A DNA stretch of 64,000 bases, from assembly GCA_949290785.1 (NCBI GenBank), contig CASETE010000013.1, positions 3,529-67,528 of the forward strand, read 5' to 3'. The position numbers were made by a program, and so were the translations under genes. The notes beneath the pieces were generated by a model. It was not told the DNA's origin. It did not search any database and saw only the letters and a program-made list of their open reading frames with translations. The DNA comes from an uncultured Pseudomonadota bacterium. GTDB lineage: Bacteria; Pseudomonadota; Alphaproteobacteria; Rs-D84. Below, in pieces: positions 45,703-51,353 of the stretch (the first letter of the stretch is position 1; every line of letters begins with the position of its first letter).

Positions 45703-46639
45703 ATCTGGCGACGTCGCCTCTTAACTTTTTATGGTGCAAATAGTTCTTTAAGATAAAGTCCGTTGCGTGCCAGTTTAGCATACCATTCCAATTATCGTCA
45801 GGAATTTCAACCGTTGGCAAAGGTAGTGGATTGCGTGACAGTTGTTCTTTTACTTGCGATAAATGGTTCGTGTAAATGTGTATGTCGTGTAGTTCGCCTT
45901 TTAATATGCCCGGCTTCAGTCCAGATTCTTTTGCATATAACAACAACAACAGCGCATAACTGGCGATATTATAAGGTATGCCTAAGAACATATCGCACGA
46001 ACGTTGCGTCCATATCAAAGACAATTTGCCGTCTCTGACAACCAGTTGGTGCATTATATGGCATGGCGGTAAAGCCATTTGTGGCATTGCGGTTGGGTTC
46101 CATGCGCTTACAATAATTCGTCTGTCGTTTGGATTGTTTTTTAGTTTTTCTATTGCATTTTTTACTTGGTCAACGCCCGGTTTTTTAGGGTTAAAATTAT
46201 TTTCTGGATTTTTATGGTTCCATTTATACGTTCCGCCAAAGTGACGCCACTGAAATCCATATATAGGTCCCAAGTCGCGTTCTTTATCCATAATTTTGTT
46301 TCGTATAGAGTTTTTTTCGTCGTCCGACAGTTTCAACCCGGCGGTTTTCAAATTGTATTTTCTTTCTACTTTTATAGGATTTGCCCATTCGTCCCAAATG
46401 TGGCACTTTCTGTCTTGTAGCCATTTTTTATCGGTTATGCCGCGCAGAAAGAATTCTAATTCTGTCGCTATATTTTTTAGGCCCATTTGTTTAGTCGTTA
46501 TCAAAGGAAACCCCATGTCCATATCATGTACGAATACGGCCCCGGACCCCAGTCCGATATCTGGAATACCTGTCCTGTTGTTGCGTATATTTTTGTGGTT
46601 ATTGTAAATGTCGCTTAGGATTTCAAGATATGCTTTCAT
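45701..46639 (-). CDS. thyA: Thymidylate synthase ThyA (long 312-aa form)
   Basis: NRTG, ...PPCH...Q..V.DGKLS......RS.D.FLG.P.NIASYALL. Confidence 0.95.
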   Translation of the reverse strand: MKAYLEILSDIYNNHKNIRNNRTGIPDIGLGSGAVFVHDMDMGFPLITTKQMGLKNIATELEFFLRGITDKKWLQDRKCHIWDEWANPIKVERKYNLKTAGLKLSDDEKNSIRNKIMDKERDLGPIYGFQWRHFGGTYKWNHKNPENNFNPKKPGVDQVKNAIEKLKNNPNDRRIIVSAWNPTAMPQMALPPCHIMHQLVVRDGKLSLIWTQRSCDMFLGIPYNIASYALLLLLYAKESGLKPGILKGELHDIHIYTNHLSQVKEQLSRNPLPLPTVEIPDDNWNGMLNWHATDFILKNYLHHKKLRGDVAR

Positions 46640-46696
46640 GGATATTTCCCTTTTTATAATTGAGGAATATAGTACTCTGTAAGGAAATAAGTCAAC

Positions 46697-46722
46697 AAAA
46701 AACGCCCAAACGGGCGTTTTTT
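46697..46722 (-). terminator. Terminator downstream of tig; inverted copy of the 45679 hairpin
   Basis: aaaaaacgccc-aaac-gggcgtttttt, the reverse complement of the 45679 element including the loop. Confidence 0.8.
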
Positions 46723-49159: not shown

Positions 49160-49193
49160 AAGAAAAAATCATATGGTATTATATTACCATATT
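49160..49193 (-). terminator. Terminator downstream of the glycine-rich gene pair
   Basis: On the minus strand: atatggta-atataa-taccatat followed by gatttttt. Confidence 0.55.
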
Positions 49194-49195
49194 GT

Positions 49196-50173
49196 TTACA
49201 TTTTATAAATACGTACGAATGATACGTTGCTGGTGCCGGTTGAACCAGAACCACCATCACCGCCAACGCTTGTGGTCGTAGATGACCTTGCTATAACTGC
49301 AGCGCCGCCACCGCCACCGCCGTACGAATAAGCGTATTGTCCACCACATATATATGGCATTGTGGCCCCGCCCCTGCCACCATTAACTGTTACCAGTTCT
49401 GTACAGGCATATGTTTTACATGATGTTACATTGCCCCCGTCGCCGCCCGATAAACTTGTTCCGTTTTCGCCAGGATTTATAACAATGCCATCAGTTGGAT
49501 AGGTGTATTTATATTGCCAGTTTGCGCCGCCAACGCCGCTCGGTGCGCCACCACCACCACCACCAATACTGTATATAACAGCGTCGGGTTTGTGTTGTAA
49601 AAAACTTCTGGCGCCATTTATATGGTCGGGTAAATTAACGCCGCCGCCGAAACCGTTGCCAACCAATACTGTTGTTGAAGTAGCGACAAGGTTTCTTGCA
49701 CAGTCTTGTTTGGGTCTAGTACAGGTTTTCCCTGGTCCTCCATTTGCACGCCATACACGGTCGCCAATAACCAATATACTGTCAACCCCAGATGCCCCGC
49801 CGCCAAATGAACTTATGCATCCATTTGATATTATCGTTTTCCCTGGATTGCCGTCCCCGCCACGTAATGCGTATACCGTTGTGGGTTGCGATATGCTGAA
49901 TACCGCAGATATTGTCGTATTGTCATCAAAACCAATGTGGTCCAGGCAGTTTTCGTTTGCTGTACCAATACCACCGCGCATCTCTGCACGATAACAACCG
50001 GGTTGTAATACAACTTCGTTACATGTGTTGAAATTAGATGCCTCAAACACCAGTTCTTCTTCGCCCGTTAAAATACACTGGCCTACTGGTACATCGTTTA
50101 CCGCCTTGTACACATTACCATCAGGCGTTTTTACAAATACAGTTTGTGCCAAAAGCAGTGTTGTAAAAAACAT
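49196..50173 (-). CDS. Glycine-rich protein, paralogue B (325 aa)
   Basis: Short hydrophobic N-terminus. VLQPGCYRAEMRGGIG, YALRGGDGNPG, GGGASGVDSILVIG.R..RANGGPG, several GGGGGG runs, C-terminal GSGSTGTSNVSFVRIYKM. Confidence 0.75.
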   Translation of the reverse strand: MFFTTLLLAQTVFVKTPDGNVYKAVNDVPVGQCILTGEEELVFEASNFNTCNEVVLQPGCYRAEMRGGIGTANENCLDHIGFDDNTTISAVFSISQPTTVYALRGGDGNPGKTIISNGCISSFGGGASGVDSILVIGDRVWRANGGPGKTCTRPKQDCARNLVATSTTVLVGNGFGGGVNLPDHINGARSFLQHKPDAVIYSIGGGGGGAPSGVGGANWQYKYTYPTDGIVINPGENGTSLSGGDGGNVTSCKTYACTELVTVNGGRGGATMPYICGGQYAYSYGGGGGGAAVIARSSTTTSVGGDGGSGSTGTSNVSFVRIYKM

Positions 50174-50178
50174 AATGA

Positions 50179-51213
50179 TTATCCTATCTTATAAATTTTG
50201 ATAAAACTGGTTTCAGACGTCCCGGTACTGCCAGACGCGCCGGCACCACCGTCTGCACAGTCAGGGTCACACCATGCGGTACCATATGTTTTACAGGCGC
50301 TGTCAACCCGTCCATAACATATTGCACCGCCACCACCGCCACCATAAGATATGGCTGTTTGGCCACCACAAGAATATGTTACGTTTTGTCCGCCCGCGCC
50401 ACCAATAGCATTATTTGTGGTAACGGCATTCCCCAGCAGATTTGTTGCATTACCGCCCTTGCCGCCACCTGTGGTTGTGCCCGGCATGCTGGCAGTGGCG
50501 GAAAAGTTTGATGTGGTTTTTGAATTGTTTCCATTACCGCCACCGTTTATATTTGCGCCACCGCCACCGCCAGCACACAAAACAGCTGATGAAGCAGCAT
50601 ACGCAGCACCGCCATCGTTTATTGTCGTGTCTGAATAATTCCCGCCACCGCCACCACCGCAGTTATATTTATGGTTGGCGCCACCGCTTGGGAATGCCCG
50701 TGTTTGAAAATTCATACATCTGGTGCCTGGGCCACCGTTTGCGCGTATTGTACGGTTGCCAACAACCAATATACTGTCAACGCCCGATGCACCACCGCCT
50801 GGAACTTGGTGACCCGTAATTGTTGGTCCGTTGTTACCGTCGCCACCACGTAATGCGTATAAGGTTGTGGCATTGTTTAGTTTAAATATACTGGATACAT
50901 ATTCACCGGGTGATTTCATAGTGCCCGTTCCAGTATCACATCTGTATGGTTTACCGCCACTGCCACCACGGAGCTCGGCGCGATATATACCCGCAGGTAA
51001 TTCAAATGTTTGGCATGTGTTTATTGTGTTTTCTTCGTATACCAAGTGCTCGATACCGTCAAATATCCCACCGTCCAACGGCATAATCGGTACGTGATAA
51101 ATATCCCCAGAATGTGTCTTGACATGTATTGCGGGACTGGTTATTTGTTGTTCGCGTGCAACCAGTTCAACGTCGCCTACGTGTAAAGTCAAAGCCAATA
51201 AAGCCGCTATCAT
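50179..51213 (-). CDS. Glycine-rich protein, paralogue A (344 aa from the ATG at 51213)
   Basis: FELPAGIYRAELRGGSGG, YALRGGDGNNG, GGGASGVDSILVVGNRTIRANGGPG, GGGGGG runs, C-terminal GASGSTGTSETSFIKIYKIG. A G-run RBS lies 4 nt before the ATG. Confidence 0.75.
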   Translation of the reverse strand: MIAALLALTLHVGDVELVAREQQITSPAIHVKTHSGDIYHVPIMPLDGGIFDGIEHLVYEENTINTCQTFELPAGIYRAELRGGSGGKPYRCDTGTGTMKSPGEYVSSIFKLNNATTLYALRGGDGNNGPTITGHQVPGGGASGVDSILVVGNRTIRANGGPGTRCMNFQTRAFPSGGANHKYNCGGGGGGNYSDTTINDGGAAYAASSAVLCAGGGGGANINGGGNGNNSKTTSNFSATASMPGTTTGGGKGGNATNLLGNAVTTNNAIGGAGGQNVTYSCGGQTAISYGGGGGGAICYGRVDSACKTYGTAWCDPDCADGGAGASGSTGTSETSFIKIYKIG

Positions 51214-51306
51214 ATATCCCCCCAACACATACTTGTATTATCAGTAAGATAAAATACCTGTTTAATATTTAATGTTATCATAGAAATTTGTAAAACTTAT
51301 AGCAAC

Positions 51307-51334
51307 AAAAAAATGTCCCACCGGACATTTTTTT
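51307..51334 (-). terminator. Terminator downstream of the histidine kinase gene
   Basis: aaaaaaatgtcc-cacc-ggacattttttt. Confidence 0.75.
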
Positions 51335-51353
51335 GTAACTTTTTTTTACTTTT

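Follow-up and report, generated by a model that had tools for sequence, protein, structure and literature searches.

Two adjacent genes, A and B, on the reverse strand of the DNA analyzed here (the window: 64,000 nt of contig CASETE010000013.1, from an uncultured alphaproteobacterium of the order Rs-D84) encode paralogous, free-standing proteins that very probably adopt the fold composed of a domain resembling tumor necrosis factor (TNF) plus a glycine-rich domain, referred to below as TG/GRD. We conclude that A and B constitute a small, divergent subfamily of the TG/GRD superfamily. The pairing of A with B is obligate, both genes are under purifying selection overall, and relatives differ from one another in discrete loops set between invariant glycine motifs. 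With modest confidence, we propose that the two proteins form a paired, exposed binding head that would dock on a small fiber-like protein, F, for surface attachment or recognition. The two genes and their principal parts are listed here by position in the window.

50179-51213, reverse strand: gene A, an open reading frame of 344 aa from ATG, predicted to encode a stand-alone TNF-like plus glycine-rich (polyglycine-II type) domain protein.
50719-51063, reverse strand: residues ~51-165 of A, the beta-rich (TNF-like) half, containing YRAELRGG, YALRGGDGN and GGGASGVDSILV; strands in the model.
50254-50718, reverse strand: residues ~166-320 of A, the glycine-rich half; contains four hypervariable loops, each flanked by invariant Gly motifs.
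49196-50173, reverse strand: gene B, an open reading frame of 325 aa, a paralogue of A with the same predicted fold.
49574-49726, reverse strand: main hypervariable region of B, residues ~150-200, from alignments; 69.7% nucleotide identity to the nearest relative.
49265-49312, reverse strand: second, smaller hypervariable region of B, about residues 288-303, from alignments.

An initial annotation of the window had described these reading frames of 344 and 325 aa, separated by 5 nt, as tandem paralogues built on a common scaffold, and both frames were confirmed at those positions (the gap reads tcatt). In pairwise alignment by BLASTP, A and B are 45% identical over the N-terminal 147 aa (E=2e-31) and ~38% identical over their full length. 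The sequence motifs named in the annotation proved to be real features of the family: YRAE.RGG, YALRGGDGN, GGGASGVDSILV, SYGGGGGGA and GSGSTGTS..SF..IYK form invariant or nearly invariant columns in 61-66 homologues. Glycine accounts for 19-21% of the residues; A contains at least 10 motifs of three or more Gly and B contains 7 or more, all of them invariant columns of the family.

The annotation had also likened the two proteins to a glycine-rich domain of phage tail-fiber-like and bacterial surface proteins, and this comparison was borne out. A matches Pfam PF12810 (ALK_LTK_GRD) with 25.5 bits (cut-off 24.5, E=1.5e-5) over residues 69-296; B gave no Pfam match. AlphaFold2 models made from family alignments, the modeling that the annotation had suggested, are confident, with a predicted local distance difference test score (pLDDT) of 90.0 and a predicted template modeling score (pTM) of 0.82 for A, and 91.7 and 0.85 for B. 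Only the first 40-50 residues of each model are uncertain, with short strands and no helices predicted there, and residues 1-10 of B fall below a pLDDT of 50. When the models were compared with the PDB by Foldseek, the best 19 matches of A and the best 21 matches of B were all ALK/LTK TNF-like plus glycine-rich ('TG') domains (entries 7NX1, 7NX0, 7LRZ, 7LS0, 7N00 and 9G5I), with probabilities from 1.0 at the best matches to ~0.6 by the end of the run. These were followed by the Bxb1 tail tip (9D93_Qa; A and B, E=0.005-0.08) and then the Pam3 fiber (7YFW; B only, E=0.24), both weak matches; the remainder was noise. A polyglycine-II strand lattice in A and B is suggested by this fold match. A structure search of a viral library returned proteins labeled 'glycine-rich domain-containing' together with minor tail and virion proteins of phages and giant viruses.

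The family profile found only 98 proteins among 1.84 billion representative proteins, its weak matches including P0195, an unambiguous PF12810 member (E=1.7e-51), and type IX-secreted proteins with an RGGDGN..GGGASG region. Neither single-sequence nor family-profile searches of PDB chains with A gave anything useful, the sole match being talin, by chance, and no match was found in NCBIfam or PHROGs for A, B or the related C-type proteins described below.

The TG fold, in which a lattice of glycine-rich strands of the polyglycine-II type extends from a TNF-like beta-sandwich, is known from the region of the receptor kinases ALK and LTK that binds ligand and from the tips of phage tail fibers. 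The TG supradomain of ALK/LTK shares with A and B the order of its elements, with beta-strands interleaved with about 10-14 Gly-rich motifs, and the presence of conserved Cys residues, and it provides their only significant fold matches in the PDB. Unlike ALK/LTK, A and B are free-standing bacterial proteins of ~330 aa that lack a membrane anchor, a kinase, an EGF-like module and the three-helix N-terminal part; they are encoded as a heteropair, and no cytokine-like ligand is known for them. Another parallel is Pam3 gp24, in which a TNF-like and a glycine-rich domain carry conserved Gly motifs, and hypervariable distal tips are proposed to bind the receptor (PMC9608196). Gp24 (7YFW) and A/B share both the domain pair and the combination of a conserved Gly stem with variable loops. 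Gp24 has an N-terminal alpha-helical docking and trimerizing domain, whereas the models give A and B short, low-confidence strands over their N-terminal 40-50 residues; gp24 is a homotrimer, whereas A and B are two paralogous chains, found without phage context or a chaperone gene. The gp38 adhesins of T2/T6/S16-type phages likewise alternate invariant Gly-rich motifs with hypervariable specificity segments (PMC3157838, PMC9608196). They follow the same sequence logic as A and B and, as small separate proteins that dock on the fiber gp37, would resemble A/B docking on F, but they lack the TNF-like sandwich. The gp38 structure 6F45 was absent from the best 50 Foldseek matches of A and B, and the resemblance to gp38 is best described as functional or architectural only, homology being unproven.

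Homologues were found only in uncultured gut Alphaproteobacteria of the order Rs-D84, several of them labeled Candidatus Enterousia. The genome that carries the window measures 1.0 Mb at 97% completeness; Enterousia genomes of this order lie under 1 Mb and lack the tricarboxylic acid cycle, respiration, flagella and standard transporters (PMC12306168). In total, 127 homologues fell into orthologous groups, which form three types: A, B and a single-copy C-type. A tree with distant homologues as its root places C at the base and joins A and B as sister clades (no support values). A survey of 200 genomes of Rs-D84, which also underlies the genome counts given below, recovered the family in 25 genomes and three of 23 genera, with 1 to 10 matches per genome and a few relic fragments; the family is accessory and not core. 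At every locus with available downstream sequence, A is followed directly by B. The flanking genes differ by lineage (RNase E/G, PriA, MscS and others), except in the syntenic nearest relative, L007. In the window, A-B lies between a two-component (histidine kinase/response regulator) operon and rplM, as annotated, among housekeeping genes. Because the flanks change between lineages, the link with the adjacent two-component pair that the annotation had raised is not general and was dropped.

The variation within the family is highly localized. Synteny with the nearest relative extends over more than 10 kb, and the flanks are 91-100% identical at the nucleotide level in 300-nt bins, whereas A-B is 59-88% identical, with minima in the glycine-rich halves and the 59% low in that of A. 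A-B is thus a sharp island of divergence. The hypervariable loops of A were placed by alignment at about residues 167-185, 196-213, 223-247 and 298-320. One relative (SIG46 / G057) contains at least 8 A-B cassettes, the duplicated unit running from ~200 nt upstream of A through the end of B; pairwise identity is 80-90% among its A copies and 75-88% among its B copies, and the differences fall in separate stretches delimited by invariant Gly motifs. Close species differ in these same stretches, and their N-terminal beta-rich halves are nearly identical.

Overall, the ratio of nonsynonymous to synonymous substitution rates (dN/dS) is 0.25 for A and 0.21 for B, and 0.17 and 0.09 in the respective N-terminal halves, showing purifying selection on both genes. 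Synonymous divergence (dS) is 2-4 times higher in the C-terminal than in the N-terminal halves (for A, 1.2 versus 0.31), which points to replacement of the variable halves by recombination and not by point mutation alone. The dN/dS of the scaffold is 0.24-0.31 and that of the hypervariable segments 0.8-1.05. Positive selection is not claimed for these segments, since they were picked by their variability and dS is raised there too. A 341-aa protein on a 6.7-kb contig (P0004) joins A-type residues 1 to ~283 to a C-terminal ~60 residues of B-type; this chimera either is a true A/B recombinant, in which a deletion fused the two neighboring genes, or arose as an artefact of assembly.

The C-type genes and F provide a second line of context. 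A conserved block consists of a TcpQ-like protein, a lipoprotein-type secretin, F (126-129 aa, with a signal peptide) and a GRD gene, and in at least 10 genomes TcpQ-secretin-F is immediately followed by a C gene or the relic of one. F proteins contain the motif A-S-x-x-Y-V-D, followed by the phage tail-fiber motif SDWNQSD..PDYIKNKP or NPHNVTKAQIGLGNV and a conserved C-terminus (..GR.FIW.N); one orthologue matches tail and tail-fiber PHROGs down to E=6.5e-9. F adjoins members of all three subfamilies in several lineages: it follows A-B in three (L018, L016 and G157), and in two distant lineages whose GRD proteins bear signal peptides it lies directly upstream of the GRD gene. Of the 21 genomes with an intact GRD gene, 19 encode F, as compared to 33 of the 179 without one (Fisher p=6e-11, a test that ignores phylogeny). 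T2SSE-family ATPases are encoded in the genome of the window. That genome also has a TcpQ-like protein, a 542-aa lipoprotein-type secretin and a 129-aa F at C6:104164-107249 (L039 5165-8250). Elsewhere on the same contig (C6:136800-140800; L047), at least three long secreted proteins are encoded in tandem. The two whose N-termini fall within that stretch share with F a signal peptide and A-(S/T)-x-x-Y-V-D and then continue with the repeated tail-fiber-like motifs KITYDSKGLVTGS and TGLATVATTGSYNDLSDKP; the array looks like a surface-fiber family with a common N-terminal module.

Features of the termini and cysteines lean toward an extracytoplasmic location. Of 111 full-length homologues, 95 have an even number of Cys residues. 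The distant homologues P0130, P0139 and P0141 possess complete Sec signal peptides that end exactly before an xLHxG motif, the motif with which A-type proteins begin; judged from their sequences, these distant family members are exported. Type IX-secreted proteins are, moreover, among the distant relatives recovered by the profile. The annotation had assigned a short hydrophobic N-terminus to the pair. This holds for B-type proteins and the A of the window, where the stretch is disordered in the model and ends in small residues (AQT, AQA, ANA or LSA), but most A orthologues start with MPVLHVGD and have no hydrophobic stretch. A and B may be exported to an exposed location.

On the proposed reading, A and B would act together at equal gene dosage, probably as a hetero-oligomer, to form an exposed binding head. 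The invariant Gly motifs would form a rigid stem, and the loops that differ between paralogues and species would form the recognition surface; Pam3 gp24 is a precedent for this arrangement. The head would probably dock on F, a small Sec-exported fiber-like protein, and the assembly would let a reduced-genome, partner-dependent gut bacterium attach to or recognize its host, a food particle or another microbe. A broader version, which we put forward tentatively and consider rather doubtful, is that A/B, F and the TcpQ-secretin locus make up an undescribed surface appendage of phage-tail-fiber-like modules. F would be its short, Sec-exported stalk and A/B its exchangeable heads, which, having no canonical signal peptides, would be exported unconventionally via or beside the secretin. 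Duplication of the cassettes, up to 8 or more in a 1-Mb genome, and their exchange through recombination would change its binding specificity. If true, the appendage would be how metabolically dependent Enterousia cells hold a partner or host.

The domain itself is already in Pfam and widespread in microbes and phages. What is new is its occurrence as a free-standing heteropair, the expansion of cassettes with variation restricted to loops, the sharp divergence island and the link to F and the secretin locus. Outside ALK/LTK and a few tail proteins of phages, the TNF-like plus glycine-rich fold is not known structurally, and a limited literature search found no functional study of a bacterial member. 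The family offers a minimal, carrier-free system (~330 aa) with natural sets of variants, a candidate docking partner in F and a candidate export locus, and a fast-diverging, probably exposed pair under purifying selection in a sub-1-Mb genome is a reasonable candidate for meeting partners.

Several observations weigh against the binding-head proposal. Only one of 66 family members passes the PF12810 sequence cut-off, and the ALK/LTK matches superpose poorly as a whole despite their specific ranking (sequence identity 10-18%, TM-scores 0.20-0.33, root-mean-square deviation 13-20 Å); we take the low TM-scores to mean that the architecture is common but diverges in detail, and not that the structures match closely. 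The dN/dS contrast is circular in part, the hypervariable columns having been picked by variability, and the co-occurrence of F with the family, as noted, takes no account of phylogeny. In the genome of the window F is unlinked to A-B; the TcpQ-secretin-F locus lies on a different contig, and no C gene follows it. As regards substrates of type IV pili or type II secretion, C-type genes are linked to the secretin locus and A-B is not, and the secretin occurs almost throughout the order (197 of 200 genomes, with or without the family), so that its co-occurrence with the family was set aside as uninformative. Signal peptides were judged by eye; by this measure most A-type and C-type proteins have none, and the hydrophobic N-termini of B and of the window's A span 10-12 residues with no charged n-region, unlike the genome's own signal peptides.

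These N-termini also speak for a rival reading that places A and B in the cytoplasm, for example as a structural or scaffolding polyglycine-II bundle or a metal-binding protein that is not displayed. A recognizable signal peptide is missing from most A orthologues, and that of B amounts to a stub; some intracellular proteins, such as Obg in its N-domain, likewise contain polyglycine-II bundles; and the clustered cysteines of A (C299, C307, C315 and C319) could bind metal. We nevertheless judge a cytoplasmic location unlikely, given that hypervariable loops and a divergence island beside nearly identical flanks are typical of exposed proteins, that Cys counts are even across the family, that distant homologues carry full signal peptides, and that the recurrent neighbor F is Sec-exported and the basal subfamily is found at the secretin locus. 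It is less probable still that A and B are the tail-fiber (receptor-binding) genes of a phage, a prophage remnant or a gene-transfer agent and serve a virus-like particle. The fold is used at phage tail tips, F bears phage tail-fiber motifs, a GH108 lysozyme-type gene is found in the vicinity of one distant homologue (L046) and a 601-aa tail-fiber-like protein is encoded on another contig of the genome. Against this, no HK97-type capsid or portal gene is present in the whole genome, which together with the housekeeping neighbors agrees with the annotation's remark that no phage genes are nearby. A viral contig scan and tblastn found no relative in IMG/VR contigs or GenBank phages, and the absence of PHROG matches for A, B and C accords with this. 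Set among housekeeping genes, in a stretch whose synteny is shared by L007, A-B has terminators and a putative promoter region of its own; F carries a Sec signal peptide, absent from virion proteins; and the basal subfamily resides at a core chromosomal secretin locus.

How the variation arises has a competing explanation as well. The annotation had regarded GGY-GGY repeats in the coding DNA as slippage-prone and inviting in-frame indels, which would make A-B a phase- or length-variable contingency locus. The repeats are present but short: Tandem Repeats Finder identified four arrays of 17-20 nt each, with 2.2-2.8 copies of 6- or 9-mers, and (GGT)6, at these positions.

49305-49321, 49548-49565, 50325-50344 and 50556-50572: tandem arrays in the coding DNA of the A-B genes.

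Some homologues do differ by 6 versus 7 residues in the length of a Gly run, as slippage would allow. The arrays, however, are in frame and of mixed codons and are not long perfect repeats, the Gly motifs are the most conserved columns of the family (the S/T-Y/H-G(n) run has 6 or 7 Gly in 96 of 111 proteins), close relatives differ by substitutions and indels in non-Gly loops, and no frameshifted copies occur among intact loci. Slippage was therefore rejected as the source of the variation, and a slippage-driven contingency locus is very improbable. That the reading frames are artefacts of low complexity, or that their products are disordered and functionless, an outcome the annotation had allowed for, is refuted beyond reasonable doubt: the high glycine content and the marginal Pfam score might have suggested it, but the models are confident (pLDDT 90-92), 127 homologues fall into orthologous groups, gene order is conserved, and dN/dS is 0.21-0.25.

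The following elements surround the two genes.

51305-51336, both strands: bidirectional terminator hairpin, a 14-pair stem with a T-run; strong; ends the upstream two-component operon.
51305-51277, reverse strand: candidate sigma-70-type promoter 1 of the A-B unit, TTGCTA-17-TATGAT, from a consensus scan.
51264-51237, reverse strand: candidate sigma-70-type promoter 2 of the A-B unit, TAAACA-16-GATAAT, from a consensus scan.
51217-51223, reverse strand: Shine-Dalgarno sequence of A, GGGGGGA, 3 nt ahead of the ATG at 51213; from sequence.
49163-49192, reverse strand: AU-rich hairpin after B, with an 8-bp stem at 49171-49192 and U6 at 49163-49168; -7.9 kcal/mol, z=-1.9.

The 344-aa start of A is preferred over an alternative GTG at 51228, which would give 349 aa, because of the placement of the Shine-Dalgarno sequence at 51217-51223. 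A run of G ahead of the start is conserved in orthologues of A and is sometimes rendered 'MGGFM' by gene callers. B starts 5 nt past the stop codon of A with AGGA 9 nt upstream, and translation of B is therefore probably coupled to that of A. The terminator that the annotation had placed at 49160-49193 is partly supported: the hairpin and U6 exist, but the structure is weak and was not called by a terminator consensus scan, and we regard it as a probable, weak terminator. With terminators on both sides, A-B would form a separate transcription unit. The candidate promoters are consensus matches only, and the number of such sites upstream of A (51237-51305) does not exceed that in shuffled sequence.

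In the multi-copy relative (L013 5858-5975; L016, L017, L019, L024, L004 and L005), six of seven cassettes share two upstream 32-nt palindromes, ACTATAAAACAAAC-CAAC/GTTG-GTTTGTTTTATAGT. The palindromes are inverted with respect to each other, with 86 nt between their centers, and 5 nt separate the end of the second from the ribosome-binding site. Operator or hairpin elements are the probable identity of the palindromes; no such element is present in the window. An invertible promoter upstream of the multi-copy cassettes received no support, as the assembled copies are all in one orientation and the segment measures ~86 bp. A GC-rich repeat of ~190 nt adjoins several of the multi-copy cassettes (L013 5625-5808, L008 7968-8352, L024 8000-8196 and L025 3793-3997), its copies being 93-100% identical and present in both orientations, although the genome is otherwise rich in AT. 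It may be a small RNA, a MITE or a substrate for recombination.

A 200-aa serine recombinase of the resolvase/invertase type (IGYIRVSS..Q) is encoded between a B gene and F in one cassette of the multi-copy relative, at L016 7993-8595, reverse strand. It was rejected as a partner of the cassettes since the linkage is inconsistent and the homologues in the genome of the window lie on contigs C12 and C14, away from A-B. In a relative, a 328-aa reverse transcriptase (RVT_1; L004 15471-16811, reverse strand), preceded by a 108-aa open reading frame, lies ~6.5 kb from an A-B cassette and might belong to a diversity-generating or group II retroelement.

The 601-aa protein (C14:27719-29524; L048 1720-3525) has no signal peptide and resembles a phage tail fiber, with an N-terminal GE.G.E.DT..K.GDG.T.W motif and NPHNVTKAQIGLGNV; its C-terminus resembles what we take to be a tail-collar domain. 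Finally, the fully syntenic L007 (92-97% nucleotide identity) lacks exactly the thyA segment, positions 45703-46697 of the window, and thyA appears to be a presence/absence cassette between these sister genomes.

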